A DNA stretch of 64,000 nucleotides from sequence record ON075799, one strand, 5' to 3'. The DNA comes from Escherichia phage vB_EcoM_TH18. The notes under the pieces were generated by a model that ran no database searches, was not told where the DNA came from, and saw only the letters and a program-made list of their open reading frames with translations. The translations under genes were made by a program, and so were the position numbers. This document shows positions 6,724 to 53,109 of the stretch, piece by piece; position 1 is the first letter of the stretch, and every line of letters starts with the position of its first letter.

Positions 6724-8787
6724 TTAAACTTCTGGTGGGGTATCTTTTAAATACCCTTTCAATGCTGTATGCCCCATATGAAAGACTGCGGATTGAGAGT
6801 TGTGCACTGTTATAGAATCATGCATTACTTGTGGATACGCCCATATGTATTGATAAATATCTGGAAACTTAAACTCATTAAGAACAATGTTCCCTATAAT
6901 CATTTTCCAAAGATATTCTCTATAATTAGAATTAGGGTCAAATCCGTATAATGGTGCTAGCCCTTCGTCTGGAACAAATCCTGCCAGATAATGTATCTTA
7001 TCTTCTTTAAATTTTAAGACATCTCGCGGAATGGTGATGGCCTGGAATGATTTTTCCATTTTTCCTTGAAGTAACCAGTCATAGCACTCGGAGCAATAGA
7101 AATCAAAATTCTCAGGTGTATAACTACCACTAGGGAAATTTATCTTTTCCATAATACCATTACCAATAATGGATGGTAAGAACGGTAAAAGTGTTATTTT
7201 TGCATTAGGATAAGATTTTTTAAGATCAGCACCGAATTTTACCACTCGCTCTCCTAGACACTGTCTTAGAAAATCTACATACTCATCATAGGGCGTTCCG
7301 GTCTTAAAGTCATAAATTGTTCCCATGTCTTGAGCATACAATCCAGTCTCTTCATTAAAACGCGCTTTTGTAGTATAATCATACACACAAGGTAAATTTG
7401 TAGCAGTATTATACCACCACCAAGGTTCCCCTATCTGAATGATAACAACCTGGTTAACTTGTTCGCATGTGGCTGCTATTTTATTTATTACACTTTGGAT
7501 ATATTGCATACCCTCGTTAATATTAGGTGATAATACCCAACTTGGTGGTGTGTATCCTGTTTCAGCTAATGCATCATTCCAGTCGTGCTGAACCCACTCT
7601 GGAGGACAAACTGTACTCATCAACTCAAAACTAATAGAATTGATAACCTTATAACCATTTGCTCGTGTCAGTGCGAAATAGTTATTCATCCATTGTAGGG
7701 TTGCATTATTGACAGGGACATCTTTGTTCAGTTTCCATGCGGAGCTTTCCCAAGAGAACTCGTAATAATGCGACATACCATTATAGTGATTTATCATATC
7801 TCTATAACCGAGTTTTAAGCAGTTATCCACCACTCTCTCCGGTGTAAGATTATACATATCATCATAAGATGTACACATGCGTATATCATGAGCAGGAATT
7901 GTCAAATTATTAACTCTCATCATTGTATAGCCTGTATCAGGCTCTTTAAGAGTTATTTTCAACATAAGATTCTGATTTTCTTTAGGGACAATATCTTCTC
8001 CTTCTGCATACTTCTCAGATATCATAGAAAAGAAAAACTGATCCACTTGAGAGGTATCCACTGCCACGTCCACATCAGGACCAGATTTTAAATTTGAAAA
8101 ATCAAGTTTGATTGTGGCCCTTTTATAATCCTCGCTGATATCTTCAGCATAAGCGTACAGAGGGATATAATGGGTTGCCCCATCTAAAAGTTTAAGAGTT
8201 AATGTTGGGGTCAATTTCTCATTATTGAAATCAGGCATTCCGTCGCCCAACTCTATATCGAACCACAGTTTAGCGTTTCGAAGGTCTGTGTGATCTTGAA
8301 AAGAGATCCCTTTATGATCATACTTATCTTTTGTGCTCCAAATAACCCCTGCCAGACCACTGACAGTTCTATTAGTCATATAAGCTGTAAGTATATTACC
8401 ATTAGATATTATAGAGCAACTTTCTGTGGGTTGAGAATCAATTGTCCAATATTTAGGTAGAAACATTTTCTCTTCTTTTGTTCCCCATCCCAACTCAGAC
8501 ATGTCCTCCTTGGTGCTAATAACACATCTGGAAGCCAGCCTGTCTAGCCTTGCACCAAAAGACGGGTTACTCATTTTTAAAGTAAATTCCCTTGGTAATG
8601 AGTTTTTAGGATGTTGTTTTATCTCCACAGGTATTTGTACAGACTTTTCCCCTTTAGGAATTGTTGCCGTACCTACCTTGGGTGTGTAATCTCTTCCAGC
8701 AATAGCTGTGTTTGATATTGTTTCATAGTCAAAGCTAACAGCTACAGAGTCATCTTCTCTTCTGGCTGTGAAAATAGCCTCTGCCAT
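6724..8787 (-). CDS. Large tail fiber / baseplate-associated protein (687 aa)
   Basis: Position between baseplate genes and distal fibers; no specific motif recognised. Confidence 0.45.
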   Translation of the reverse strand: MAEAIFTARREDDSVAVSFDYETISNTAIAGRDYTPKVGTATIPKGEKSVQIPVEIKQHPKNSLPREFTLKMSNPSFGARLDRLASRCVISTKEDMSELGWGTKEEKMFLPKYWTIDSQPTESCSIISNGNILTAYMTNRTVSGLAGVIWSTKDKYDHKGISFQDHTDLRNAKLWFDIELGDGMPDFNNEKLTPTLTLKLLDGATHYIPLYAYAEDISEDYKRATIKLDFSNLKSGPDVDVAVDTSQVDQFFFSMISEKYAEGEDIVPKENQNLMLKITLKEPDTGYTMMRVNNLTIPAHDIRMCTSYDDMYNLTPERVVDNCLKLGYRDMINHYNGMSHYYEFSWESSAWKLNKDVPVNNATLQWMNNYFALTRANGYKVINSISFELMSTVCPPEWVQHDWNDALAETGYTPPSWVLSPNINEGMQYIQSVINKIAATCEQVNQVVIIQIGEPWWWYNTATNLPCVYDYTTKARFNEETGLYAQDMGTIYDFKTGTPYDEYVDFLRQCLGERVVKFGADLKKSYPNAKITLLPFLPSIIGNGIMEKINFPSGSYTPENFDFYCSECYDWLLQGKMEKSFQAITIPRDVLKFKEDKIHYLAGFVPDEGLAPLYGFDPNSNYREYLWKMIIGNIVLNEFKFPDIYQYIWAYPQVMHDSITVHNSQSAVFHMGHTALKGYLKDTPPEV

Positions 8788-26360: not shown

Positions 26361-26389
26361 TGCTTAACTCCTTGAAAAAAAAAAACATT

Positions 26390-31774: not shown

Positions 31775-32560
31775 TTATATTCTTTTATACAAGGTAGGAG
31801 CTACAATTTTTGGAATAACAACAGGTTTGACTATTTCTTCTTTTTCAAGATAATTTATCCCAGAAGAAATGGCGTCGACCCAATCGTCTTTTCTTGTCGT
31901 TGTACTCCTTTCCCCATTGAACTTTTCAAGCTCTGTCATAAGGGCTTCATAAGTTTTAGGATCAAAACTATCACGAACTATTCTCACCATACCTGCTTGA
32001 GCAAGTTTTGCAAAAGGTGTAAATCTTGTTAATTTTGATTTATTGGTTGGTGTAGGATCTTTTTCTACTGTAAATCCTTCCGCTATTAGTTCACGAGAGC
32101 TTGTTAAAAATTCACTTATTCCTGCTTGTCCTGGGTCAACACTGAAAATTATGGTAACATCATCACCATCAAAATAAGCCTGTTTCTTAATGATAACATC
32201 ACGTTCCCCAGCTTTTTTACAGAATCTCCCCTGCGTTTGAGTTGAATATCTACCATCATCAAAAAATTCAGGACAATAATCACCAGACAAATAGTAAAAG
32301 CCATCATTGTCTTTACTTACCTTAACAGATGCTGTAAAGTCAGGATATCTGTTTCCAGATGTTCTTTCTGTACCTGCTTTATCATACGGACGAACAGATA
32401 CAACACCGAGAGGTAAGCAGGGAACCTCTTTTAAATAAGATCTCTGGAAATAGTTTGCCCCTTCAGGTCTTGCGTTCCAGTTTCCATGCAATAACTGGGC
32501 TTTTTCTACCTCTGGAAGACCTTCAAGGAATGCTAGATAATCTGGGTTATTCTCCAGCAT
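31775..32560 (-). CDS. terL: Terminase large subunit, exon 3 (nuclease domain; 5-prime boundary approximate)
   Basis: Open frame continues upstream of the listed Met; acidic motif KDDWVDA near C-terminus; preceded by group I intron core. Confidence 0.6.
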   Translation of the reverse strand: MLENNPDYLAFLEGLPEVEKAQLLHGNWNARPEGANYFQRSYLKEVPCLPLGVVSVRPYDKAGTERTSGNRYPDFTASVKVSKDNDGFYYLSGDYCPEFFDDGRYSTQTQGRFCKKAGERDVIIKKQAYFDGDDVTIIFSVDPGQAGISEFLTSSRELIAEGFTVEKDPTPTNKSKLTRFTPFAKLAQAGMVRIVRDSFDPKTYEALMTELEKFNGERSTTTRKDDWVDAISSGINYLEKEEIVKPVVIPKIVAPTLYKRI

Positions 32561-33575
32561 GGGAGGATTATCGAATCCTTGTATTCAAGGTTGGACGCAA
32601 CGCCAACCCCCGCACCACTACGTGCTGCTGCATGTCACCATGCAGAGTAGACTATATCACCACCCACACATAATGGGTGCTTCGCTTTTCGAACGCCATT
32701 AGCTTGCGATCTACTCCCTTGCGGGATAGTCGTTGAACTACATTACCATTCATAGTTGTTTGAGATATAGATGTAAGTTTTTCTATCTTTTATTCTTCTA
32801 ACAAGATTAAAACTAACACCCCATTTTTTAGATATCTTATTAATGCTTAGGATACCGTCTCTCAGATCTTCACATATCCCTATAACTTTGGATTCACTAA
32901 TTCTGTTGGAAGAAGGAACCATCCTGAAATTAAACTCTTTAGAAATGTCTGGGTAGACTCTCCCAGCTTTGATACTACTAACCACAGTCTGCCCAATACC
33001 AAACATCTCACTGATATCCTTTACTCTAGCACCCTGCTCAAGTAATCTGCATATCTCAAGGGCAGTGTTATCATCAAGAGGCCTGTAACTGTTTACATAA
33101 GACTTCTTAAGCCCTATTTCATGTGCGTGATGTGTGCTTTCCTTTGCAGTTGTCCACTCAAGATTCCACGCTGCGTTATTAAGTTTGTTTCCATCTAAAT
33201 GGTTCACTTGAGTTTTTGTATCAGGGCTATCATTCTCGACAAAAGCAAAAGCAATAACCCTATGGACAAGAACTTGAAACTTTTTACCATCCTCACACAA
33301 CGTTAACATTGCATAGCCAGTTTTCTTATGGACATTAGGATGTAAAAATTTGTGGGAATACAAACTATAAATTCTTCCATCATACGTCGCACAATAATGG
33401 GAATACCCTAAAAATCCTAAATTTTTCATCTCAAACATTCTCCCTACTACAGTTTCGGAAAAGTAATTATAGCTGCTGATTGCCCTTATACAAAGGGTTT
33501 CCCAGCAATTAACGAAGTTATTCGACATGCATTACTGCATGAAGCCACTATTCTTTTAATGGTTGCGGAAATGAA
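32561..33575 (-). mobile_element. Group I intron 2 carrying an HNH homing endonuclease ORF (boundaries approximate)
   Basis: Minus-strand reading shows P-like AAUUGCUGGGAAA, P5 hairpin, Q-like AAUCAGCAGC upstream of ORF, and R-like GUUCAACGACUAUC plus S-like GAUAUAGUCU downstream, giving P7 pairing GACUA/UAGUC. Confidence 0.65.
32743..33438 (-). CDS. HNH homing endonuclease (232 aa from MFEMKNLGF…)
   Basis: Typical N-terminus (KNLGFLGY…YDGRIYS) and HNH motif VNHLDGNKLNNAAWNLEW; SD AGGGAGA upstream of Met; lies inside intron between P/Q and R/S elements. Confidence 0.75.
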   Translation of the reverse strand: MFEMKNLGFLGYSHYCATYDGRIYSLYSHKFLHPNVHKKTGYAMLTLCEDGKKFQVLVHRVIAFAFVENDSPDTKTQVNHLDGNKLNNAAWNLEWTTAKESTHHAHEIGLKKSYVNSYRPLDDNTALEICRLLEQGARVKDISEMFGIGQTVVSSIKAGRVYPDISKEFNFRMVPSSNRISESKVIGICEDLRDGILSINKISKKWGVSFNLVRRIKDRKTYIYISNNYEW

Positions 33576-37814: not shown

Positions 37815-37893
37815 TGGTTGCGAGTATTGGAATCGAACCTGCAATCTTCAGGGTATGAACCTAACATGGTAAATCCATTTCCACCAATCTGCA
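37815..37893 (-). tRNA. tRNA-like element, degenerate (possible anticodon CAU); likely pseudo-tRNA
   Basis: T-loop-like GGUUCGAUUCC and D-arm found, but acceptor and T stems pair poorly in hand fold. Confidence 0.25.
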
Positions 37894-37899
37894 ATAATT

Positions 37900-37975
37900 T
37901 GGTGTGACGGACAGGATTCGAACCTGTGACCACCTAGTCTTCAGCAAGGCACTCTACCAACTGAGTTACCGTCAC
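37900..37975 (-). tRNA. tRNA-Phe (anticodon GAA)
   Basis: Hand-folded cloverleaf: acceptor GUGACGG/CCGUCAC, T-arm ACAGG-UUCGAAU-CCUGU, anticodon loop CUGAAGA, CCA encoded. Confidence 0.75.
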
Positions 37976-37980
37976 ATAAT

Positions 37981-38057
37981 TGGTGGGCGATGAGGGACTC
38001 GAACCCCCAAAATTCAGGTTCTAAGCCTGACATGTATACCAATTCCATCAATCGCCC
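37981..38057 (-). tRNA. tRNA with anticodon UAG (Leu by anticodon) but class I architecture
   Basis: Acceptor GGGCGAU/AUCGCCC, anticodon arm UCAGG-CUUAGAA-CCUGA, 5-nt variable loop, A73, CCA encoded. Confidence 0.6.
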
Positions 38058-38305
38058 ATCTATATTAACAGTTATGGTTTTCCACGATACACAGAAATAG
38101 TTTTCCCATTAGCATTGATAACATAAGCGGTCTGATCCTCAGACAAAAACACTTTTTGATCAATGCCGGAAATAGCTATAGACTTTTGATGAGCACAATA
38201 CCCAACAATTTTCCCACAAAAAATTTGTTCATCATTTGGAGAGACGACTTTAACTGTTAACATGGTATCCTCTGTACATTTCTGCTTTGATATGTTTATG
38301 TTTGT

Positions 38306-38383
38306 TGGTCTGTCCGGTTGGATTTGAACCAACGACCTGGTCATCCCAAGTGACCCGCGCTACCCAAGCTGCGCTACGGACAG
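38306..38383 (-). tRNA. tRNA-Pro (anticodon UGG)
   Basis: Acceptor CUGUCCG/CGGACAG, anticodon loop CUUGGGA, T-arm GUUGG-UUCAAAU-CCAAC. Confidence 0.75.
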
Positions 38384-38467
38384 AGAAATGTAGATTTTAA
38401 TTGTCCCAGAATCTACTAACTGGTATCGCTGGCTAGGTGATATCTGTGACTTGATTAAGTCAAGAAT

Positions 38468-38559
38468 TGGCGGTTCCTGAAGGATTCGAACCTTCGGTGG
38501 GGAGATTCATTCCCAACGGCTTAACAGGCCGTCACCATCGACCACTCGGTCAAAGAACC
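38468..38559 (-). tRNA. Class II (long variable arm) tRNA with anticodon GUU (Asn by anticodon)
   Basis: 92 nt; acceptor GGUUCUU/AGGAACC, D-arm with CCGAGUGG, anticodon arm ACGGC-CUGUUAA-GCCGU, 20-nt variable arm, T-arm GAAGG-UUCGAAU-CCUUC, G73, CCA. Confidence 0.6.
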
Positions 38560-38568
38560 TGAATATTT

Positions 38569-38645
38569 TGGTGGATCTGGTTGGGGTCGAACCAACAATC
38601 TCTCGATTAAAAGTCGAGTGACTTAAACCATTTGGCTACAAATCC
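38569..38645 (-). tRNA. tRNA-Lys (anticodon UUU)
   Basis: Acceptor GGAUUUG/CAGAUCC, anticodon arm CUCGA-CUUUUAA-UCGAG. Confidence 0.75.
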
Positions 38646-38878
38646 GTTAAATTATCTTTAAAATAGCTAATTACTCGCACATAATTAGCTATACGCAACA
38701 ACTCTCCAAGGAGAGCACACTAATGATCGATTACGATTATATGACTAAATTTAGACCATCATAAGTGTTTGGCTTACGCCAGTAAAGAGCGGACTGCTCT
38801 GGGGTATCGGTAAGATGGTTGCAGCCATCTACCGAAAAATCACACCAAGCAACTAAACAAGCTACATTAAAGATAACT

Positions 38879-38967
38879 TGGAGGAGGCTGACAGAATCGA
38901 ACTGTCACCATATCTCTACAGCGGGACTGGGTTCAAACCAGCTTGTGCACCATGCACCCCAGCCTCC
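38879..38967 (-). tRNA. tRNA-Ser (anticodon UGA), class II
   Basis: Acceptor GGAGGCU/AGCCUCC, anticodon arm GCUGG-UUUGAAC-CCAGU, long variable arm, T-arm GACAG-UUCGAUU-CUGUC. Confidence 0.7.
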
Positions 38968-39038
38968 AAAGATAGCCTCTGCCGAGGATATACACCCAAC
39001 AAAGGAGGCGCTCAGGTCAGAAGAAATCTGAGCCTTAA

Positions 39039-39132
39039 TGGAGGAAGATGCCAGACTTGAACTGGCACACCCATTTCTGGGTTACTATCTCCTTAGCAGG
39101 GAGATCCCTTACCAAATTAGGGTTAATCTTCC
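39039..39132 (-). tRNA. tRNA-Ser (anticodon GCU), class II
   Basis: Acceptor GGAAGAU/AUCUUCC, anticodon arm UCUCC-CUGCUAA-GGAGA, long variable arm, T-arm GCCAG-UUCAAGU-CUGGC. Confidence 0.7.
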
Positions 39133-39153
39133 AATACCTTAGTAATTAAAAAC

Positions 39154-39243
39154 TGGTGGAGAAGGAGAGAATCGAACTCTCAAGCCGTTTTACCAGTCAG
39201 CACATTTCCAATGTGCTTTCGTCGCCAATCGATTTGCTTCTCC
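39154..39243 (-). tRNA. tRNA-Ser (anticodon GGA), class II
   Basis: Acceptor GGAGAAG/CUUCUCC, anticodon arm GCACA-UUGGAAA-UGUGC, T-arm GAGAG-UUCGAUU-CUCUC; D-arm irregular. Confidence 0.65.
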
Positions 39244-39252
39244 GTTTTAACT

Positions 39253-39328
39253 TGGCAGGGGATGGTTGATTCGAACAACCGATCACGGGGTCAAAGCCCG
39301 TTGCATTAGGCCACTATGCTAATCCCCT
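39253..39328 (-). tRNA. tRNA-Gln (anticodon UUG)
   Basis: Acceptor AGGGGAU/AUCCCCU, D-stem GCAU/AUGC, anticodon arm ACGGG-CUUUGAC-CCCGU. Confidence 0.75.
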
Positions 39329-39331
39329 TTT

Positions 39332-39409
39332 GCACGAGAGTGAGGAATAGAACCTCTTAGTCACTGGTTTTGGAGGCCAGCCTTCACCCAGTGAAGTTAC
39401 GCTACTCTC
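39332..39409 (-). tRNA. tRNA-like remnant (probable pseudo-tRNA)
   Basis: Acceptor-like GAGAGU/ACUCUC and T-arm-like GAGG-UUCUAUU-CCUC, but no canonical anticodon arm. Confidence 0.2.
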
Positions 39410-39417
39410 ATTAAAAA

Positions 39418-39975
39418 CTATTTTCGAAAAGGACTTATGAAAAATGCCAACATCACTCTCTCTCTTGAAAAAGCTCTGTCTTCAGGAACCACACTCTTCA
39501 GTTTCCAACCGACATAAATTCGCCAGTAAAATTGTTTTCCAAACAATCTAAAAGACGGGACAAACGCGAATACACCCCACGCATTGTCATTCCACATCAA
39601 CAAATAGCCTTGTTGGTTATCCTCCACATCAGAGCTTACATGGAGGTTTCCTTTCCACTTTGTCACAGATGTGATTTCACGTCCAAGTACGTGATAGGAG
39701 AAATTGTAGGCTTTATTTCTCCACAACCAAGCAACTCGTTGTAGGTAAACACCAAAACTTCCTATTTTACGGACTTCTTCCCATCTCTCTATGTGTCCTC
39801 TATCACCGTCTATAGGATTATCATATGTCTCCATCCACCTGAAAATATAAGGCAGATGCCCTGTCTTCTCATTATAGAACGGAACAACAAAAGGAGCCAG
39901 AATAACACAGAGAACCGACATAACTGGGTCAAGAGGTGCTAACAGGATCCACGATAAATATTTTAAGTATCTCAT
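39418..39975 (-). CDS. Hypothetical membrane-associated protein (185 aa) embedded in tRNA cluster
   Basis: Hydrophobic N-terminal helix; Trp-rich. Confidence 0.35.
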   Translation of the reverse strand: MRYLKYLSWILLAPLDPVMSVLCVILAPFVVPFYNEKTGHLPYIFRWMETYDNPIDGDRGHIERWEEVRKIGSFGVYLQRVAWLWRNKAYNFSYHVLGREITSVTKWKGNLHVSSDVEDNQQGYLLMWNDNAWGVFAFVPSFRLFGKQFYWRIYVGWKLKSVVPEDRAFSRERVMLAFFISPFRK

Positions 39976-40327
39976 GCAGGATCAAGCCTAGATATAATGT
40001 ACTGGTTTAAATCTGAATATGGGAAGATACTTTCAAAGATAACCTGTTTAAATCTGAAGCCGCACAAACCGAAAAGTACCTTCTGACACTCACCAAAAGA
40101 GCAATCTTTACCAACTTTTATCACAACCGTATCGGCAATCTGCACACTTTCTATCTCTTTAGATTCATGATGCCGTACTATGATTACTTTAGAAACCATC
40201 ATACTCGTCCATATTAAAGCCTTCTACTAAAGATAGTAGATGTCTAGGGTTGGACCGCAAACGCAACCCCATGGAATTTGTTACGGTCTTCAGTTGACCC
40301 AAGCGGATTTCATTGACATCTTTTAAC

Positions 40328-40402
40328 TGGAGCATCCAGAGGGTATCGAACCCTCGACTTCAGCTTGGAAGGCTGTAGTTTTCCCAATTAAACTATGGAT
40401 GC
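40328..40402 (-). tRNA. tRNA-Gly (anticodon UCC)
   Basis: Acceptor GCAUCCA/UGGAUGC, anticodon loop CUUCCAA, T-arm GAGGG-UUCGAUA-CCCUC. Confidence 0.7.
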
Positions 40403-40407
40403 ATATT

Positions 40408-40483
40408 TGGTGGGAGTGGTAGGCTCTGCCCCTACGTCCTCTCGATTATCGGTCGAGCGATCTACTAACTGATCTACACTCCC
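40408..40483 (-). tRNA. tRNA-shaped gene, anticodon GAU (Ile by anticodon), with non-canonical D-, anticodon- and T-loops
   Basis: All four stems perfectly paired, but T-loop is GGCAGAG (no UUC), D-loop AGUUAGUA lacks GG, anticodon loop CCGAUAA has C33. Confidence 0.55.
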
Positions 40484-40551
40484 AAACTGTACTGGCCCAA
40501 CAACCACGATTGGAGGGTATCGTCACACATCAAAGCCAGTACAGTTTTAGT

Positions 40552-40641
40552 TGGTGTGCCGTGATAGAGTCGAACTACCCGAGTCCCTTTCGAGACAGGA
40601 GATTTACAGTCTCCCCCGCTACCCCTACGGTCTAACGACAC
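40552..40641 (-). tRNA. tRNA-Tyr (anticodon GUA), class II
   Basis: Acceptor GUGUCGU/ACGGCAC, anticodon arm GGAGA-CUGUAAA-UCUCC, long variable arm, A73. Confidence 0.7.
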
Positions 40642-40642
40642 A

Positions 40643-40990
40643 TTAACCTTGTTTGAATTGAACAATATCCGTCGAGAACGGTTTAGCTGCCTTAATAGGT
40701 GCTTTTTCTGAGTTATCTTTTTCGAGTAACTCTTCGTTTTCCTCATCAAAGTAATCAGAAAGCATCTGCTCACCTTTCTCAATAACATAACGAGCTATAT
40801 TTTCTCTGATATTGTCTTTTGTATTCACATTCTTCATCAAATCCCTAAGAACCTGATGAGCTTCAGGAATCATTGCAATCAGATTCGTTTTTAAATCTAG
40901 GATATTTTTCTCTAACTGAATTGCATTAGATTCCTCTTTCAGAGGACGACCTTTTCCTCTTCTACGTTTTGTAAGCTGCTTAGTAGCCAT
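40643..40990 (-). CDS. Hypothetical basic/acidic protein (115 aa from MATKQL…)
   Basis: ORF trimmed to Met downstream of a consensus sigma70 promoter; longer listed ORF would overlap tRNA-Cys. Confidence 0.4.
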   Translation of the reverse strand: MATKQLTKRRRGKGRPLKEESNAIQLEKNILDLKTNLIAMIPEAHQVLRDLMKNVNTKDNIRENIARYVIEKGEQMLSDYFDEENEELLEKDNSEKAPIKAAKPFSTDIVQFKQG

Positions 40991-41009
40991 TTTAAAACCC
41001 CACTTAATG

Positions 41010-41038
41010 ATATTATCAAATAAAAACATATCTGTCAA
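41010..41038 (-). promoter_or_regulatory. Consensus sigma70-like promoter on minus strand (TTGACA, 17-nt spacer, TAATAT)
   Basis: Minus-strand reading TTGACAgatatgtttttatttgaTAATAT, about 20 nt upstream of ATG at 40990. Confidence 0.55.
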
Positions 41039-41075
41039 GTGGTATTTTAACATATTTACCAAGAAATTGAAAGTT

Positions 41076-41152
41076 TGGAGCACGGTGTCGGACTTGAACC
41101 GACATATATCTGTTTTGCAGACAGATCCGTAACCAAATTCCAGCAACCGTGC
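41076..41152 (-). tRNA. tRNA-Cys (anticodon GCA)
   Basis: Acceptor GCACGGU/ACCGUGC, anticodon arm UCUGU-CUGCAAA-ACAGA, T-arm GUCGG-UUCAAGU-CCGAC. Confidence 0.7.
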
Positions 41153-41228
41153 AATAAGTACCCCAGGTAGAGAACCTATAGAGTGGGTCTTACGAGCCGC
41201 GCTGACGATTCTCAAGTTGGGGTTAATC

Positions 41229-41305
41229 TGGTCGAGGAGACAGGATTCGAACCTGTGACCTACGGCTTAGAAGGCCGCTGCTCTATCCAACTGAGCTACA
41301 CCCCG
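41229..41305 (-). tRNA. tRNA-Arg (anticodon UCU)
   Basis: D-arm GCUC-AGUUGGAUA-GAGC, anticodon arm GCGGC-CUUCUAA-GCCGU, T-arm ACAGG-UUCGAAU-CCUGU; acceptor has one U-U mismatch. Confidence 0.7.
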
Positions 41306-41505
41306 AAAATAAGAATGCTTTATAGTGTATGGTTACTCAACCTCACTCCAACTTCCACAGTTGGTGCTCTACGAGCATGACTACGTTTGAAATCAACGTT
41401 GCGCACCGATAGCTTTCTCACGCATTGTATGCCTCATTCCCAACAAATGCTGATCAGACATTTATATCGAATAATATAAGCTAATACACTATAAAACAAA
41501 CTTGT

Positions 41506-41602
41506 GGCTGGGTGATGGAATCGAACCACCTATGTATTCAACGGCTTCCCCGTCTATTTTCAGGATTATAAATCCTCGCCCTTGCCAAAGGGCTTACCCA
41601 GC
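41506..41602 (-). tRNA. Atypical 97-nt tRNA-like gene (possible anticodon UAU) with about 30-nt extra segment
   Basis: Canonical acceptor GCUGGGU/ACCCAGC, D-arm GCCC-UUUGGCAA-GGGC, T-arm GGUGG-UUCGAUU-CCAUC; anticodon region is a 4-bp stem with loop UUUAUAA followed by 30 extra nt; CCA not encoded. Confidence 0.35.
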
Positions 41603-41604
41603 AT

Positions 41605-41679
41605 TGGTGCTCGCAGCAGGTTTCGAACCTGCAACCCCCTGCTTACAAGGCAGGTGCTCTACCGTTGAGCTATACGAGC
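41605..41679 (-). tRNA. tRNA-Thr (anticodon UGU)
   Basis: Acceptor GCUCGUA/UGCGAGC, anticodon arm CCUGC-CUUGUAA-GCAGG, T-arm GCAGG-UUCGAAA-CCUGC. Confidence 0.75.
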
Positions 41680-42044
41680 AATAAGACATTGCTTCCGATT
41701 AACAGCCTTGAGGCTTTACAGACCATATCTTGTGAGCCATAACCTGTGCCAAGGATTTCAGATGATAAACGAAATTTTATCTTTCAAGAGTCAACTTTCA
41801 AGTTTCATCTTTTACATTTAACCATTGACCTTTATTGTATGAACTTTTACTTAGTGGAAACAACAAGGCATCTTCGTGTGCCTCGCTGCATCTATGTCCT
41901 GTATTATCCTCATACATATACGATACATGGTGGGGGATATTTAACCTCCAACCCCCAGGAGGCAAGATGATGTAAACTTCGTTAATCAAAAGCAATGTTT
42001 TAAATTTCAAAACAAAGGAACGATAATGATATTATCAGAGCCTT

Positions 42045-42692
42045 TTAGAGAGAGTGCTCAATCTCAATTTCTGTCTTAGCGTTTGACTCAGACAACGCAA
42101 AATCAACGTTAGACAAGAAATCTTCAATCTCTTCTTCAAGAGAACGAATCTTAGAAGCCAGTTCAAGAGGATCCACAACCGATGGTGTGTTCATCATTCG
42201 AATAGGAGCTTCCACAGTCTTAATCTGCTCTGCATCTGGCGCTTTATCACGTTGGATATATGGCGCTCTTGCATTTTCAAGTTTATCTTCCAGAGATTTT
42301 TCTTCTTTTGCCAGAAGAAGCTGTGCAGAAGCACGCTGTGCACAAAGTTTGTTTAACAACTCTTGTTTAAAGCAAATCGTCCGTTTGCGTTCGATTGCCT
42401 CAGCAACTGTCATAGACACATTACCAATTTTGACAATTGTCTCAGCATTAGACTTAACAATTTTTGCTTTCAGTTCATCACGCACTGCCAAGAGGTCTTG
42501 CAGACTTTGATAGTCGTTGATCGCAGATTTCTTAAAATCATCAACAGAGCCGATATAACCCGGAATCTTACAATTATTCTCAGTTCCTTTTGCAATCTTA
42601 ATACAATCAAGATTGTAGATACGCTTATTGATCTTATCTTCAATTTTAGAGATAGAAGCAAGTGCACGAGTTACGGAAATCTTAGTAGACAT
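42045..42692 (-). CDS. Hypothetical protein (215 aa)
   Basis: ORF with coiled-coil-like charged regions. Confidence 0.4.
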   Translation of the reverse strand: MSTKISVTRALASISKIEDKINKRIYNLDCIKIAKGTENNCKIPGYIGSVDDFKKSAINDYQSLQDLLAVRDELKAKIVKSNAETIVKIGNVSMTVAEAIERKRTICFKQELLNKLCAQRASAQLLLAKEEKSLEDKLENARAPYIQRDKAPDAEQIKTVEAPIRMMNTPSVVDPLELASKIRSLEEEIEDFLSNVDFALSESNAKTEIEIEHSL

Positions 42693-43033
42693 GCGATCTC
42701 TCCTATGTAAATCAGCTTTGATAAAGTAACTATCCAGAAAAACAAAAACTATGTCAAGAAAAATTTTAATCTTTTACAGCATCTTTTATAGAATCACAAA
42801 GATCTTGAACAACATCAGATGTCGGTGACAAAATCATCTCGTCGGCTGCTGCTATAGCATCTGATGCTAAATCAACAAACGGAGTTGTTACCGCAGAAGT
42901 CACTTCAACAGCCGTTATTGTTACTTCGCTTGCAATCTTAAGCAAAGATCCTATCATAATCTCAACCCTCCTGAATATCCGTGATTCCCTTTATTTAACG
43001 ACGCTGGCTCACGGTGGCACTCTCGTCAATAAA

Positions 43034-43357
43034 CTATTTTTTAGTTTTCTTACCGTTTTCTACAGAAATGCTTGTTTTCTGTTTCGCTTCTCGTTCGCGC
43101 TTTGTTTTCCCAGTGCGAATACGATATGAAGCAGAAATAACTTCACCACCAATGACACGAGACACAGATTCGTAATACATTTCAGTATTACCGTCTTCAT
43201 CTTTGCGTTTTTTCAGAACTGCTACAGTTTGCGTTTTACCACCAAGGCGCACATCGTGCGGTGCAGAATGTGTCTGCGTGGATTTTGATCCAAACTGAAA
43301 AGGTTGCTTTATCGCCTCGATAGCTGACACCTTTTTAGCAGACTGTTTCTTAGCCAT
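43034..43357 (-). CDS. Hypothetical basic protein (about 107 aa from MAKKQSAKK…)
   Basis: Lys/Arg-rich small protein. Confidence 0.4.
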   Translation of the reverse strand: MAKKQSAKKVSAIEAIKQPFQFGSKSTQTHSAPHDVRLGGKTQTVAVLKKRKDEDGNTEMYYESVSRVIGGEVISASYRIRTGKTKREREAKQKTSISVENGKKTKK

Positions 43358-43409
43358 TAAGTTTTCTCCTCCGAAAACAATAAACATAGTTTATTTCGTG
43401 TGCCACATT

Positions 43410-43486
43410 TGGTGGCCCCTGCTGGACTTGAACCAGCGACCAAGCGATTATGAGTCACCTGCTCTATCCAACTGAGCTAAGGGGCC
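43410..43486 (-). tRNA. tRNA-Met (anticodon CAU; elongator-type or lysidine-modified Ile2 not distinguishable)
   Basis: Acceptor GGCCCCU/AGGGGCC with G1-C72, anticodon loop CUCAUAA, T-arm GCUGG-UUCAAGU-CCAGC. Confidence 0.75.
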
Positions 43487-44342: not shown

Positions 44343-44395
44343 AACATTCTCCTCAAAATAAAAACCCCTCCATGTGGAGGGGAATGATTATGGTG

Positions 44396-46111
44396 TTAAA
44401 GCTGTGATAAGGCTCTTTGGCGAATTTCTTCAAGATCCTCATCCACAAGCAGCTTACCATTAACAAAAACTGTTCTAAGCTCGTTATCATGGTCAGATAC
44501 TTGGTTAATACCAAGATTATCTACCAGCTTCAACTCGCCATCATCACCACGAATAACTTTAACAAAACCTTTCGCAGATTTCTTCCCAAGATCAGTCTTA
44601 GGCTCTTTTACGACCATTACTTGTCTGCCATCAATCACAGCACCAGTAGCTTTTACAGCCATCCCAAGAGAATCACGGGTTGTATATTGCGTTGTATAAG
44701 ACCCTACACCAAACACAATGTTACTGGAAGCAAACCCTCGTTCTTCAAGGCGCTCAAAGATCTCTTTAGCACGGGAGATTGTGATAGAGTCTCCGTAGAT
44801 TAAACCAACATGGCTATCAAGAACTTTGTAACCCAAAGAGTTTACACTACCACCAAAGATTTCCCACAAGCATTGTACAGCACCCTTAACTTCCTCTTTT
44901 GTCAGATAATTTGTAAATTCATCACCTGTCAAAGATTTCCAATCTACGAGGTTGCCTTCCGAATCTCGCATCCATGAAGTGTCTCTGGACATCTCGTATA
45001 AAGTGACATATTTGCCATTTTTAAACAGCACAGCATCCATGTCACAGCACTGCCCCGTTGCCCATTCTTCCTGAGAGCACACGCGATAACCAGCAATGAT
45101 GTGCTCTGGGATCCCACTGTCAGGTCGGAAGACCAGCTTGCCATCACGAGACATAATCTCATCTTTCAGGATTTTTGCTGCCTGTGTAATGATTGCCCAA
45201 AAATCATAGCTGTCAGCGACGTATGAAGCATAACCTGATGGGAAAATCTCTGTCACATAACGCTTTAAGAACTCAACTTCAGCACGAAAACGTGCTTCAT
45301 CAAGCGGCATATCAGGATTTTCCTGCTGGATACGCTCAACAATAAAACCAATGTTCGTTGTCGCTACGCTATGCTCAGATGCGGGAATAGACCCAGCAAC
45401 AAAGCGACCTTTCATGTTGTAATAGCGATTTGCGTAAACAATCGCTGGAATTGTATCTGTGCCCATTGAGCTAATCAGTTGCCCAAATTCGCTCTGTGCT
45501 GCGTCATGTGTTCCAGCTTCACCACGGTATGCAAAACAATGGTTCTGGAAAGGAACATGATCGTTGTTATCACATGTTTTCTTTGCCCACAGTTCTGATA
45601 GTTTACGGTATTGCCAGAAAGTCGTTGCCGTGGTAATTGTCTTCCAAGTCTCCGATGAGATCACGCTCTCAAGGAAGTTCGGCAGCCAGTAAAAATCAGG
45701 ATGCGTGTTCTGAATCGTGAACATGGGAACCTGAACAGGAACAAGAGTTCCTTCAGGCAAAGCCCTAATTTCAATTGGGAGATAACCAAGGTCATGCAAT
45801 TTCTCAAAACCCCAAGTTTCAACAGCATCCTTCCCAATGCTCAAATCACAAATCTCTTTGTAATCCTGAATCGCCTTTTCTTTCGGTAAAGCGAAGAAAT
45901 TATTATTAAACATGTCGATCAGGAACCACTTGATAAATCCCTGAAGACCTGCAAACATCACACGATGGTCATCATCTGCAAAGTGTACAAAGTGTTTCAC
46001 ATTGCGTGGGGTCATGTTGTCTTGAACAAACTGTGAACGTCTATCGTACATCGAGATGTGACTTGGTTTATAAAAATCTGCGAACAGCAATGGACTTTCT
46101 TTGTGAAGCAT
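44396..46111 (-). CDS. Nicotinamide phosphoribosyltransferase-like protein (NAMPT family; possible Namat-type) (571 aa)
   Basis: Family assignment by overall recognition and size, not by a single diagnostic motif; immediately downstream of and co-oriented with PRPS-like gene. Confidence 0.6.
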   Translation of the reverse strand: MLHKESPLLFADFYKPSHISMYDRRSQFVQDNMTPRNVKHFVHFADDDHRVMFAGLQGFIKWFLIDMFNNNFFALPKEKAIQDYKEICDLSIGKDAVETWGFEKLHDLGYLPIEIRALPEGTLVPVQVPMFTIQNTHPDFYWLPNFLESVISSETWKTITTATTFWQYRKLSELWAKKTCDNNDHVPFQNHCFAYRGEAGTHDAAQSEFGQLISSMGTDTIPAIVYANRYYNMKGRFVAGSIPASEHSVATTNIGFIVERIQQENPDMPLDEARFRAEVEFLKRYVTEIFPSGYASYVADSYDFWAIITQAAKILKDEIMSRDGKLVFRPDSGIPEHIIAGYRVCSQEEWATGQCCDMDAVLFKNGKYVTLYEMSRDTSWMRDSEGNLVDWKSLTGDEFTNYLTKEEVKGAVQCLWEIFGGSVNSLGYKVLDSHVGLIYGDSITISRAKEIFERLEERGFASSNIVFGVGSYTTQYTTRDSLGMAVKATGAVIDGRQVMVVKEPKTDLGKKSAKGFVKVIRGDDGELKLVDNLGINQVSDHDNELRTVFVNGKLLVDEDLEEIRQRALSQL

Positions 46112-46174
46112 GATCTCAACCCTCCAACCTAAAAGCGTATTTTTTCACTAAAACGTATCTTTGTCAAGATGTAA

Positions 46175-46984
46175 TTAAAAATTTTCTGTCCAGTCGTAGT
46201 ACGCATAGATTTCGTCAACGCCACCGTTGAGAATAAATTCTTTCCCACGAGAGAAAATCCCATGCGTGACATACAAGATAACACGTTTAGCACCAGCAGC
46301 TTTCAAGGCTTGAGCTAAGTTTGTAAACGTAAACCCACCATCGCAGATATCATCAACAATCAGGCACATCTTCCCATCGACATCACCAAACACTGTTGTG
46401 CCTGTGATTGCCCCTGTTCCCACATCACGGATTTTACCAGCTTCAACCACAGATAGTTCCAAGGCATCAGCTACCTTCTGGGTCTTCTTGCGTGCACCTG
46501 CATCTGGAGCAACCAACACAAGCGATTCGTCCGTAAGCAGATCAAAATCAAACTTCATGTTCAAGAACAATTCAGTCTGAGAACGAATTTTCACGTTATC
46601 AAGCAGTGCTGCGGATACGTCACTGTGTGGGTCATCGACGATGACTTTGTGGAAACCCAGCGAGTTAATCATTGTGGCAAAGACTTTCACCGACAGAGCT
46701 TCACCAGGGTTCATAACTCGGTCTTGTCGAGCATACGGGATGTACGGCAGGTGTAAAACCTTTTCCACACCAACATCCAAATTGCCAAGACGATTGACTG
46801 CATCAACAAGCAACGCAAGACACATCACATCTTGGGAGTGCTTAATGCGAGCGAAGATATCCACAAAACCAATCGAACCCTTAGGGATATAGTGCATATC
46901 GATCTTCACCTGCTCCTCACCACCACTGAAGGTAAAATGGTCAACTGGAACATGCAACTTGTTCAAACTCAAACGAATATTCAT
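46175..46984 (-). CDS. Ribose-phosphate pyrophosphokinase-like protein (PRPP synthetase family; possible Adps-type) (269 aa)
   Basis: PRPS signatures PYIPYARQDR, VLVAPDAGARKK and PRPP-binding loop LIVDDICDGGFT. Confidence 0.75.
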   Translation of the reverse strand: MNIRLSLNKLHVPVDHFTFSGGEEQVKIDMHYIPKGSIGFVDIFARIKHSQDVMCLALLVDAVNRLGNLDVGVEKVLHLPYIPYARQDRVMNPGEALSVKVFATMINSLGFHKVIVDDPHSDVSAALLDNVKIRSQTELFLNMKFDFDLLTDESLVLVAPDAGARKKTQKVADALELSVVEAGKIRDVGTGAITGTTVFGDVDGKMCLIVDDICDGGFTFTNLAQALKAAGAKRVILYVTHGIFSRGKEFILNGGVDEIYAYYDWTENF

Positions 46985-47382
46985 GATTTATCTCCTCTAG
47001 CACGATTGACGATAATATAATTTCTTGGTTTCACGTTACCATCAGAATCCTGAAATCCTGATCTGACACGCCTGACATAACCAAAGCTCTCCATCCGAGA
47101 CAGAAATTCAGACACTTTGGTTCGTGAGTTTTCGTTCCACCCCAACAGACCACACAAGGATTGCTGTGACGGAAAGAATACCAGTTCCCCACCCAAGGGG
47201 TTCCGACTCTTGAAATACTCGTATCTCCACAACAAGCGTATCAGTCTTTGCAGATCGCTTGGTGATAACCGTTCATCAAAAACCCACTCTGTCGGCACAG
47301 CGATGTACGACCCAGCTTTCGGATTTACATGGAAACCCCCAACATTCGATTTCAAGGCAAACTCCGGTGTGTAATTCAACAC
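46981..47382 (-). CDS. Hypothetical protein (133 aa), first gene of the leftward unit
   Basis: ORF overlapping PRPS-like start by 4 nt. Confidence 0.4.
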   Translation of the reverse strand: MLNYTPEFALKSNVGGFHVNPKAGSYIAVPTEWVFDERLSPSDLQRLIRLLWRYEYFKSRNPLGGELVFFPSQQSLCGLLGWNENSRTKVSEFLSRMESFGYVRRVRSGFQDSDGNVKPRNYIIVNRARGDKS

Positions 47383-47451
47383 CGAGAATGCTACTCATAA
47401 CACCACACAATGTCAACCCCTCCCATATGTCCCCATTTCAGGGACATTATG

Positions 47452-47549
47452 ATCTAATATAATATATATTATATAATATAATTTAATATAATACTACGTA
47501 TTATATATATTATAATATATATATATAATTTATATAAAATACACTAAGT
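47452..47549. repeat. AT-only low-complexity (TA-rich) palindromic tract at the strand-switch region
   Basis: About 100 bp of only A/T with alternating TA runs and a central TACGTA palindrome. Confidence 0.8.
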
Positions 47550-47976
47550 CTTGAAGAATGTCAAGACTTGATTTTAAATATTTTTGTTGATATGATTCGA
47601 TTGAGTCGAATCGTATGGTTCGATGATTTCGAATCATAGAGTTCATGTTGTTTTGCCTGAAATCGTGAGTCGATGAGACTCTTCAGGCAATACGTGAGTG
47701 TGTAAGATGCTCACTGCGCTGATAGCTTGTGATCATCTAACCCTCATGAGCCATTCTGAGATAAACCCACATCAACAAACCCCACAGGTTTGTCTCTGTG
47801 TGTTAATCTCAATCATGGATTCGGGTTGTCACAAGTCACTATGTGACTCTGTGTGGGGATTTCGAATGTGTACCGGAGCATGGCGCACAGGACTGGTTCA
47901 TCTGTCCGTCTCAACTGGGGCGCGGCGGGGGTTAAGGTTTAGTTTTACGTTTTGTGTGGGTGTGGAGGAGAGTTTT

Positions 47977-52896: not shown

Positions 52897-53109
52897 ATGG
52901 CTAATATTCGCACCTTGTTAAAAAATGCAAAGCAAGTTTTATTTTCCGATCACGATTATTTCAATAAAGACATTACAGGCGTAAAGAATATCAAAGACGT
53001 AAAAAATGTCATGGGTATCTATTGCAATATGAAGCGAGTAGGCACATTTGGCAATAAAGTATTATATCAGGCAGGTGACTATAATTTTACTTTGACAATT
53101 ATTTCATAA
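52897..53109 (+). CDS. Early small protein (70 aa)
   Basis: SD AGGAGA upstream; preceded by hairpin gacggggaactgctccccgtc. Confidence 0.45.
   Translation: MANIRTLLKNAKQVLFSDHDYFNKDITGVKNIKDVKNVMGIYCNMKRVGTFGNKVLYQAGDYNFTLTIIS

Follow-up and report, generated by a model that had tools for sequence, protein, structure and literature searches.

The window analysed here, a 64-kb stretch of phage DNA, carries two co-directional open reading frames (ORFs) on its minus strand, 63 bp apart. It is byte-identical to Escherichia phage 18-1-2 (Avunavirus) over the kilobase compared and about 94% identical to phage Av-05. The original prediction had placed two back-to-back genes at this locus, and ORFs with exactly those boundaries were recovered. 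Table 1 lists the pair, here named adps and namat, together with the features that surround it.

Table 1. Features of the adps-namat locus (window coordinates).
Feature	Position	Strand	Description
hairpin resembling an intrinsic terminator	44365..44382	-	CCCCTCC-ACAT-GGAGGGG followed by TTTTTATTTT; 14 nt past the namat stop
namat	44396..46111	-	571 aa, ATG start; predicted nicotinamide ADPR-transferase, Nampt family, Adps-associated clade
adps-namat spacer	46112..46174	-	63 nt; GGAGG ribosome-binding site 8 nt before the namat ATG
adps	46175..46984	-	269 aa, ATG start; predicted ADPR-pyrophosphate synthetase, Prs family, phage Adps clade
orf133	46981..47382	-	small protein, phrog_8453; weak sub-threshold HTH match
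candidate promoters of the orf133-adps-namat unit	47388..47564	-	divergent AT-rich intergenic region; consensus matches only

The layout is consistent with a single leftward unit, which would run from the AT-rich divergent promoter region through orf133, adps and namat to a terminator just past namat. Gene orientation and GC skew flip at about 47.4-48 kb of the window, and a consensus scan of the divergent region returned three sigma-70-like matches at 10/12 (47564-47536, 47538-47509 and 47416-47388). The stop codon of orf133 overlaps the adps start (ATGA), so the two genes are probably co-transcribed. Within the spacer, the same kind of scan gave a promoter-like match, TTGACA-17-AAAAAT with a TG extension, at 46167-46139. 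The hairpin has a 7-bp stem with six G-C pairs and a T run after it, and is likely to mark the 3' end of the namat transcription unit.

The 269-aa protein clearly belongs to the Prs (PRPP synthetase) superfamily. The three signatures from which its membership had been predicted, PYIPYARQDR, VLVAPDAGARKK and LIVDDICDGGFT, are all present in the translation, the PRPP-type loop DDICDGGFT occupies residues 211-219, and the protein matches Pfam Pribosyltran_N, Pribosyl_synth and Pribosyltran, phrog_619 (6.8e-92) and TIGR01251 (146.7 bits). As had also been noted, it is shorter than cellular Prs, which measures about 315 aa: the alignment with E. coli Prs (315 aa) spans Prs residues of about 33-270, and the phage protein has no counterpart of the cellular N-terminal helix or of the final ~45 residues. 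An AlphaFold2 (AF2) model is confidently folded (pLDDT 94). A PDB search with this model ranks PRPP synthetases first (TM about 0.78) but cannot separate Adps from Prs, because the PDB holds no Adps structure and only PRPP synthetases come back.

Family membership alone would fit a boost to canonical salvage, in which Prs makes PRPP, NAMPT makes NMN and host NadR/PncC finish NAD+, the two genes acting as metabolic auxiliaries. The names given by Pfam, PHROG and NCBIfam (ribose-phosphate pyrophosphokinase, nicotinamide/nicotinate phosphoribosyltransferase) point in this direction, and the protein passes the cutoff of the broad TIGR01251 subfamily (146.7 vs 113 bits). This, however, is the sole Prs model that it passes; every equivalog Prs model fails, including NF002320 (121 bits vs a cutoff of 297). 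Its scores follow those of the validated Adps enzymes of phages Bas63 and SpβL1 rather than those of a real Prs: on TIGR01251 the window protein reaches 147 bits, Bas63 139, SpβL1 106 and E. coli Prs 423; on NF002320 the corresponding values are 121, 101, 74 and 533; and on phrog_619 they are 309, 333, 248 and 193.

By BLASTP the protein is 92% identical to its Av-05 counterpart; identity is 43% with Bas63 Adps (152 bits) and 28% with E. coli Prs (82 bits). Since SpβL1 Adps, at 89 bits, barely stands apart from the 82 bits of E. coli Prs, the clade placement depends on the tree together with the Bas63-like relatives. In a neighbour-joining tree that included four cellular Prs from three phyla, cellular Prs split from all Adps-like proteins, including those of Bas63, SpβL1 and the window, in 100/100 bootstraps, and the window protein was nested between Bas63 and SpβL1 Adps. 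Its best 120 database relatives are all short Prs-like proteins of 257-301 aa. In specific-model score, in length (~315 aa) and in clade, the protein therefore departs from canonical class I PRPP synthetases, and the sequence comparisons support its assignment to the phage Adps clade.

The assignment of the 571-aa protein to the NAMPT family, originally offered with less certainty, was borne out by PF04095 (2e-28), phrog_448 (8.9e-195) and NF006629 (476.5 bits). Pfam, PHROGs and NCBIfam cannot tell Namat from Nampt, as was found when phrog_448 and NF006629 were checked as discriminators, and finer distinctions come from direct comparison. The best PDB matches are 9W5X and 9W5W (E 1.3e-124), the crystal structures of SpβL1 Namat (PMC12774641), followed in third place by 9KE8/9KEO, whereas cellular NAMPTs score from 2e-49 to 2e-52. 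By BLASTP, Bas63 and SpβL1 Namat reach 414 and 397 bits (42% and 40% identity), while the NARP2-type Nampts from VH7D and Miller stay at 123 and 87 bits, with 29-31% identity over fragmented alignments. Among the matches listed in a phage-wide tblastn, one group lies at E <=1e-83 and a T4-like/KVP40-like group at 1e-13 to 1e-26.

Lan et al. 2026 (PMC12774641) described a Namat selectivity signature, GSXΦXΦXΦTRD, in which positions 3 and 7 are aromatic, and a clamp loop that has Arg, Lys or Tyr as its third residue; after Lys or Tyr, it is the following residue that stacks on adenine. The clamp helix of the window protein, G470-SYTTQYTTRD-480, fits the signature, with Tyr472 at position 3, Tyr476 at position 7 and Thr, not Tyr, at position 5. 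The NARP2 Nampts read GGGLLQQLDRD or GGGLLQEVTRD here, with Gly and Gln/Glu at the aromatic positions. The predicted clamp loop, TPRNVK39-H40-F41, has Lys at the expected site and His next to it, in a part of the AF2 model that lies below pLDDT 50; the model as a whole, built from eight sequences, has a pLDDT of 61.5 and falls under 50 in the N-terminal loop and the clamp helix region. The adenine-clamp motif argues against the salvage reading too, as it is absent from PRPP-using Nampts. Compared with SpβL1 Namat, the window protein carries two insertions (about aa 254-278 and 343-408), which Bas63 Namat has as well, and His247 aligns with the conserved EHS histidine. Taken together, the comparisons support a place in the Adps-associated Namat clade and not in the Nmnat-associated one.

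Both genes appear to be maintained. Lys184 of Adps corresponds by alignment to SpβL1 K162, whose replacement by Ala inactivates the enzyme, and Arg329 of Namat corresponds to R306, a position at which mutation abolishes SpβL1 NARP1. Neither K184 nor R186 varies among 65 Adps-like sequences. Two features could instead suggest decaying or inactive NARP1 remnants. The Adps C-terminus is the shortest among those aligned, ending in ...DWTENF without the 25-40-residue tail of Bas63, SpβL1 and others, and His40 (or Phe41) stands at the predicted clamp-loop stacking site, in place of Trp in Bas63 and Arg in SpβL1. Such decay has next to no chance of being correct: neither reading frame is interrupted, conservation extends to the residues that align with the SpβL1 inactivating mutations and to the nearly invariant positions of the family, and the Adps model folds with the high confidence given above. 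Av-05 and metagenomic relatives of about 90% identity share the short Adps form, and dN/dS against Av-05 (0.13 for adps and 0.055 for namat) reveals purifying selection on both genes.

An NMNAT, which canonical synthesis from NMN would need, was not found in the window, in 33 kb of 18-1-2 or in 114 kb of Av-05, either by tblastn or phmmer with NadD and NadR or by the motif GxFxPxHxGH, which both query proteins carry. The search covered ~210 kb of lineage sequence with a sensitivity limited to relatives detectable from NadD and NadR; it agrees with the original prediction for the window and extends the same result beyond it. A 'nucleotidyltransferase' annotated in Av-05 was considered as a hidden NMNAT and rejected, being of the RlaP/pol-beta type. 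These searches bear on the proposal of a NARP2-type system, in which the 571-aa protein would be a true Nampt working with a phage NMNAT encoded elsewhere. The window is only part of the genome, and phages with unlinked Nampt and Nmnat genes exist, KVP40 being one example. Yet such an arrangement is extremely improbable here given the negative searches, the low identity to NARP2 Nampts, the missing GGGLLQ motif and the adps gene that adjoins namat, no phage with both pathways having been found in Osterman et al. 2024.

The evidence instead converges on NARP1, the NAD+ reconstitution pathway whose mechanism was established with the homologues from Bas63 and SpβL1 (Osterman et al. 2024). The original prediction had described this literature accurately and had proposed a counter-defence module rather than housekeeping metabolism. 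Gene structure, family and clade, specificity motif, key residues, linkage, selective constraint and the outcome of the NMNAT searches all agree with that proposal. We place the probability that the pair is the core NARP1 operon of an Avunavirus (Vequintavirinae) E. coli phage at about 90%. A Namat homologue within 10 genes of adps is the linkage expected of NARP1, and here the two genes are adjacent and co-directional. Osterman et al. 2024 list the Av-05 Prs/Adps homologue in Table S1 with 'Namat within 10 genes: Yes', and label the Av-05 Namat 'Adps-associated' in Table S2. The pair is a catalogued member of a published system, and the NARP1 reading is correct but not new.

According to this mechanism, NAD+-depleting defences (SIR2-HerA, DSR1/2, Thoeris, SEFIR) would split NAD+ into ADP-ribose (ADPR) and nicotinamide. 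The 269-aa Adps would transfer the pyrophosphate of ATP onto ADPR's terminal ribose to form ADPR-pyrophosphate (ADPR-PP); the 571-aa Namat would exchange that pyrophosphate for nicotinamide, forming NAD+ directly without an NMN intermediate or an NMNAT. Tyr472 and Tyr476 of the helix, and Lys39 with His40/Phe41 of the loop, would grip the adenine moiety of ADPR-PP and give this substrate preference over PRPP. The two reactions, ADPR + ATP to ADPR-PP by Adps and ADPR-PP + nicotinamide to NAD+ by Namat, were demonstrated only for the SpβL1 homologues, while the overcoming of defence was demonstrated for Bas63, Fado and SpβL1 knock-ins (Osterman et al. 2024). By analogy with these systems, with which Adps/Namat identity is only 43%/42% (Bas63) and 34%/40% (SpβL1), we infer both enzyme activities and the anti-defence effect for the window orthologue.

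The same biochemistry bears on the salvage reading. Namat enzymes keep PRPP-to-NMN activity in vitro (PMC12774641), so some salvage function is possible. A canonical salvage boost as the role of the pair is nonetheless very unlikely: besides the model scores, the tree and the clamp, the SpβL1 homologue gave no product in a PRPP-synthetase assay, and a ΔpncC ΔnadR host did not stop Bas63 from overcoming defence.

Regarding possible accessory genes of this putative core NARP1 operon, a Pfam scan of the flanking ORFs (orf133 and ORFs of 68, 82 and 117 aa, among others) found no Macro (Adpp) or RyR gene within two genes of the pair, by hmmscan, which is less sensitive than the HHpred used in Osterman et al. 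2024. The locus would therefore correspond to core NARP1 and not to an extended form. The overlap between the orf133 stop and the adps start raised the idea of orf133 as a third component, which was rejected. Homologues of orf133 occur in only 73 Vequintavirinae-type phage records vs about 1,500 with Adps, and a word-index protein search with orf133 gave a single match. The homologue of phage W70 stands first in the corresponding leftward unit, and no NARP1 genes follow it; in GEC_vB_MG and ABPH49, adps is separated from the homologue by another gene. Thus, orf133 is a conserved first gene of the leftward unit in Vequintavirinae and not a NARP1 component. Separately, a 70-aa ORF of Av-05 annotated 'phosphoribosylpyrophosphate synthetase' (Av05_0027; window equivalent 52897-53109) has no Pfam match, and this label is probably a misannotation.

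An Adpp-like Macro gene does exist in the lineage, outside the window and about 68 kb from the NARP1 genes (18-1-2 positions 7591-8112, equivalent to Av05_00156). Its product is 36% identical, over its full length (E 8e-29), to the phosphatase in the Adps-phosphatase-Namat operon of Vibrio phage Cody, and its closest characterised PDB relative is yeast Poa1p, an ADPR-1''-phosphate phosphatase. A tentative and rather improbable extension of the core reading is that the Avunavirus lineage runs an unlinked NARP1-AP, in which the Macro protein would make ADPR from ADPR-1''-P for Adps. The alternative is a role in RNA repair, in keeping with the RNA ligase 2 gene beside the Macro gene. Were NARP1-AP unlinked in this way, the phage would also resist aRES-type defence, and extended NARP1 would be undercounted by the published survey, whose scan reached no further than two genes on either side. 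Two other Av-05 candidates were rejected as NARP1 accessories for this lineage. The second Macro gene, Av05_00193, is 96-100% identical in DNA to T4-like phages and has no match in 18-1-2, 19-1-2 or 24-2-1; the Nudix gene was set aside by extension from Av05_00193, as it sits among T4-typical annotated genes.

These results add no new biology, since earlier publications already cover the pathway and its structural basis and list the near-identical pair of Av-05. Their value lies mainly in annotation: generic HMM libraries still produce the names 'ribose-phosphate pyrophosphokinase' and 'nicotinamide phosphoribosyltransferase', which appear in public records for this phage group and should become Adps and Namat (NARP1 counter-defence). 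They also lead to the prediction that NAD+-depleting defences of the SIR2, TIR and SEFIR types would meet partial resistance in Avunavirus phages, for instance Av-05, which was isolated on E. coli O157:H7.

Among known systems, the pair of Av-05, of the same genus, is the nearest counterpart. Its genes (KM190144_00031 and _00030) encode proteins of 269 and 571 aa in the same order and spacing with orf133 upstream, and differ by 21 (adps) and 15 (namat) amino acid substitutions, at 92% and 97% identity. Bas63/JohannRWettstein (genes 79-80), whose NARP1 was validated in vivo against SIR2-HerA, likewise has Adps followed by Namat in one operon. Its Namat is also the long form with both insertions. 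Its clamp loop is built as Lys followed by a stacking residue, Trp; the window protein has Lys at the corresponding site, with His40 or Phe41 as the putative stacking residue. The clamp helix reads GSYTYQYMTRD in Bas63 vs GSYTTQYTTRD in the window, with Tyr against Thr at position 5. Bas63 differs further in being a Felixounavirus and in having an Adps of 293 aa with a C-terminal tail that the window protein lacks.

Bacillus phage SpβL1 offers the biochemically characterised version of the two-enzyme pathway. Its Namat H245 corresponds to H247 of the window, and its clamp aromatics F392 and Y396 to Y472 and Y476; unlike the window protein, it has 491 aa without the two insertions, and Arg40 itself stacks on adenine. 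The extended forms, NARP1-AP (Adps-Adpp-Namat, Vibrio phage Gary) and RyDEP-containing NARP1 (mycobacteriophage DyoEdafos), have the same core of Adps and Namat, but the window pair lacks the neighbouring Macro gene of the former and the neighbouring RyR gene of the latter. KVP40-type NARP2 (Nampt and Nmnat) and the cellular Prs and Nampt enzymes are related through protein superfamilies and folds and differ in clade; the Nmnat of NARP2 was not found in the lineage sequence searched. Finally, the clamp positions occupied by Gly and Gln/Glu in cellular and NARP2 Nampts are aromatic in the window Namat.

The adjacent genes adps and namat, which encode a Prs-like and a NAMPT-like protein, form on sequence grounds a NARP1 system, and the biochemistry and phenotype of this orthologue would be those of NARP1. 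In the definition of Osterman et al. (bioRxiv 10.1101/2024.02.11.579819), the Prs homologue Adps carries out the ATP-dependent pyrophosphorylation of ADP-ribose, and the Nampt homologue Namat combines the resulting ADPR-PP with nicotinamide to yield NAD+. The same study validated the route in vivo for the Bas63 and Fado systems and in vitro with SpβL1 enzymes, and described Adps as a phage-specific clade with an adjoining Namat gene in 97% of its members. The original prediction had proposed such an Adps-Namat counter-defence module, and it was right, as indicated by the Adps clade, the Namat scores, the clamp motif and a listed pair in Escherichia phage Av-05.

Both reading frames begin with ATG at the predicted positions, and all three Prs motifs quoted beforehand occur in the 269-aa translation. 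Profile searches matched this protein to Pribosyltran_N, Pribosyl_synth and Pribosyltran in Pfam, to phrog_619 (6.8e-92) and to TIGR01251 (146.7 bits), and the 571-aa protein to PF04095, phrog_448 (8.9e-195) and NF006629 (476.5 bits), leaving no doubt, at the level of profiles, about either superfamily. A further profile of 547 positions, phrog_12872, is labelled "nicotinamide phosphoribosyl transferase"; Adps matches it at 2-222 and Namat, through its C-terminal half, at 254-539. Since the two proteins match different parts of it, fused or mis-called Adps-Namat ORFs are suggested in some phages.

The 269-aa protein is closer to Adps than to cellular Prs. BLASTP gave 43% identity to Bas63 Adps (152 bits), 34% to SpβL1 Adps (89 bits) and 28% to E. 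coli Prs (82 bits), and its best 120 relatives in a collection of 5.8 billion proteins were all short (257-301 aa) and Prs-like, many of them on phage-sized contigs. A neighbour-joining tree combined validated or listed Adps with 11 of the 120 relatives and with cellular Prs, four sequences representing three phyla; these four come from Table S1 of Osterman et al. and carry the entry "Namat nearby: No" there. The split between cellular Prs and every Adps-like protein was recovered in 100/100 bootstraps, and Bas63 and SpβL1 bracket the group that contains the window protein. The profile comparison proposed with the original prediction agreed: with TIGR01251 the window protein, Bas63, SpβL1 and E. 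coli Prs scored 147, 139, 106 and 423 bits, and with NF002320 121, 101, 74 and 533 bits, the last three serving as score controls. Lys184 corresponds to K162 of SpβL1 Adps, whose K162A substitution is inactivating (bioRxiv 10.1101/2024.02.11.579819), and is invariant in a 65-sequence alignment. Our alignment further distinguishes Adps from Prs by K-x-R-(D/N)-x-x-T-G-x-I in place of the KRRPR loop, (D/E)PHS in place of DLHA, and DD(I/L)(C/S)xxGxTF in place of DDMIDTGGT. An AF2 model (pLDDT 94) superposed on PRPP synthetases with a TM of about 0.78, the PDB holding no Adps structure for comparison. The window lineage, Av-05 included, has the shortest C-terminus in the alignment (...YAYYDWTENF), lacking the 25-40-residue tail of Bas63, SpβL1, Staphylococcus and Pseudomonas phage Adps.

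The 571-aa protein likewise sides with Namat. Its best PDB matches were 9W5X and 9W5W (E 1.3e-124, 420 bits), which are SpβL1 Namat bound to nicotinamide or NAD+ (Lan et al., PMC12774641), against about 170-180 bits for cellular NAMPTs. BLASTP scores were 414 bits for Bas63 Namat and 397 for SpβL1 Namat, as opposed to 123 for the NARP2-type Nampt of VH7D, a KVP40-like phage, and 87 for that of Miller, a T4-like phage, and a phage-wide tblastn reproduced this two-group division. The clamp-helix motif, GSYTTQYTTRD (Tyr472, Tyr476), fits the Namat signature GSXΦXΦXΦTRD of Lan et al., which has aromatics at positions 3 and 7; the corresponding sequences are GSYTYQYMTRD in Bas63, GSFTYQYNTRD in SpβL1, and GGGLLQQLDRD and GGGLLQEVTRD in the two NARP2 Nampts just named. 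The selectivity-clamp loop may be of Bas63 type, in which a Lys precedes the stacking residue; Lys is in place, but the window protein continues with His40 and then Phe41, where Bas63 has Trp. Arg329, the counterpart of R306 in SpβL1, is conserved; the conserved EHS histidine is matched in the alignment by His247. Two insertions, at about 254-278 and 343-408, account for the 571-aa length, and are not unusual because the validated 593-aa Bas63 Namat shares both. The AF2 model (pLDDT 61.5) was too poor for use. In phage phiTE (JQ015307, 4903-8739), an HNH endonuclease gene cuts namat into two ORFs within the variable first insertion region, which explains the half-length PHROGs 16547 and 15800, and another HNH gene lies between adps and namat.

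The rival NARP2 route joins a true Nampt to an Nmnat, and no phage was found to carry both routes (Osterman et al.). The window yielded no NMNAT, and neither did 114 kb of Av-05 or 33 kb of phage 18-1-2 starting upstream of the window, in tblastn and phmmer searches with E. coli NadD and NadR, which detect NadD- or NadR-like enzymes only. The GxFxPxHxGH motif, whose presence in both queries validates the pattern, was also absent from all three. Of two Av-05 "nucleotidyltransferases", the one considered as an NMNAT is of RlaP/pol-beta type and the second is a CCA-adding enzyme.

Gene orientation and GC skew both change at about 47.4-47.7 kb, the point of divergent transcription, and the tRNA cluster, oriented like the pair, follows immediately after the NARP1 terminator. 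Relative to Av-05, dN/dS was 0.13 for adps and 0.055 for namat; both genes are therefore under purifying selection.

Coordinates of the window features discussed here
Feature	Position	Strand	Remarks
Structural genes	0.2-37.7 kb		
16 tRNA genes	37815-43486	-	Met x2, Phe, Leu, Pro, Asn, Lys, Ser x3, Gln, Gly, Tyr, Cys, Arg, Thr
Strong terminator-like hairpin	44382-44365	-	14 nt past namat stop
namat	44396-46111	-	571 aa
adps-namat spacer		-	63 nt; GGAGG ribosome-binding site ahead of namat
adps	46175-46984	-	269 aa
orf133	46981-47382	-	First gene of unit; stop codon overlaps adps ATG
Intergenic region	47383-47697		Divergent promoter region
AT-rich low-complexity tract	47448-47541		TAATA and TA repeats
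Three promoter-like sites	47564-47388	-	In AT-rich sequence
70-aa ORF	52897-53109	+	Orthologue of Av05_0027

The leading gene, orf133, was rejected as a NARP1 component: it is restricted to phages of Vequintavirinae type, in phage W70 it leads the same unit and no NARP1 genes follow, and phages of other genera have another gene between it and adps. In Vequintavirinae-type phages it is always first past the strand switch, with or without NARP1 downstream. It belongs to phrog_8453, has a weak sub-threshold HTH_Crp_2 match and may be a DNA-binding early protein; an in-frame TTG start at 47355, preceded by GGAG, would be better supported than GTG at 47382.

Escherichia phages 18-1-2 and 24-2-1 match the region at 100% identity, and Av-05, of the genus Avunavirus in subfamily Vequintavirinae, matches it at 94%. 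The first kilobase of the window equals positions 32001-33000 of the 18-1-2 scaffold byte for byte, and on these grounds the window is DNA of a virulent phage. In GenBank, the scaffolds of 18-1-2, 24-2-1 and 19-1-2 all stop exactly at window position 47447. The adjoining AT-rich tract, where Av-05 has a ~106-bp indel, may be an assembly breakpoint, a genome end or an origin-like region. At window 26378-26383, Av-05 (NC_025830) position 41740 is joined straight to 114107, and Av-05 41.7-68.2 kb is in reverse orientation. One Av-05 gene, at 111388-111855, shares 96-100% identity with T4-like phages (378 records), gave no match in 18-1-2, and has T4-typical annotated neighbours (about 103-114 kb). 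Because of this junction, gene and neighbourhood, the Av-05 record looks chimeric or misassembled in the 41.7-114.1 kb region, as do phiE142 and phiC120. The label "phosphoribosylpyrophosphate synthetase" on Av05_0027 is apparently wrong, its window orthologue having no Pfam match.

Two NARP1 operon extensions are known: Adpp, a Macro-domain ADPR-1''-phosphate phosphatase that counters aRES (NARP1-AP), and RyDEP, a RyR-domain glycosidase. Since a Pfam scan found neither domain in the genes flanking adps-namat, the pair is, by domain content, the core two-gene form. An Adpp-like Macro protein is encoded outside the window, ~68 kb from the pair and adjoining an RNA ligase 2 gene (18-1-2 scaffold OK136180.1, 7591-8112; Av05_00156, Av-05 94634-95155). 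The protein shares 36% full-length identity (E 8e-29) with the phosphatase of the Adps-phosphatase-Namat operon of Vibrio phage Cody, its closest characterised PDB relative is the ADPR-1''-P phosphatase Poa1p, and it could serve NARP1 as an unlinked accessory or else act in RNA repair.

The Av-05 genes appear explicitly in the supplementary tables of Osterman et al., with KM190144_00031 in Table S1 as a Prs/Adps homologue marked "Namat within 10 genes: Yes" and KM190144_00030 in Table S2 under the genomic environment "Adps-associated". Since the window proteins share 92% (Adps) and 97% (Namat) identity with this catalogued pair, they are, by homology, a known member of a known system.
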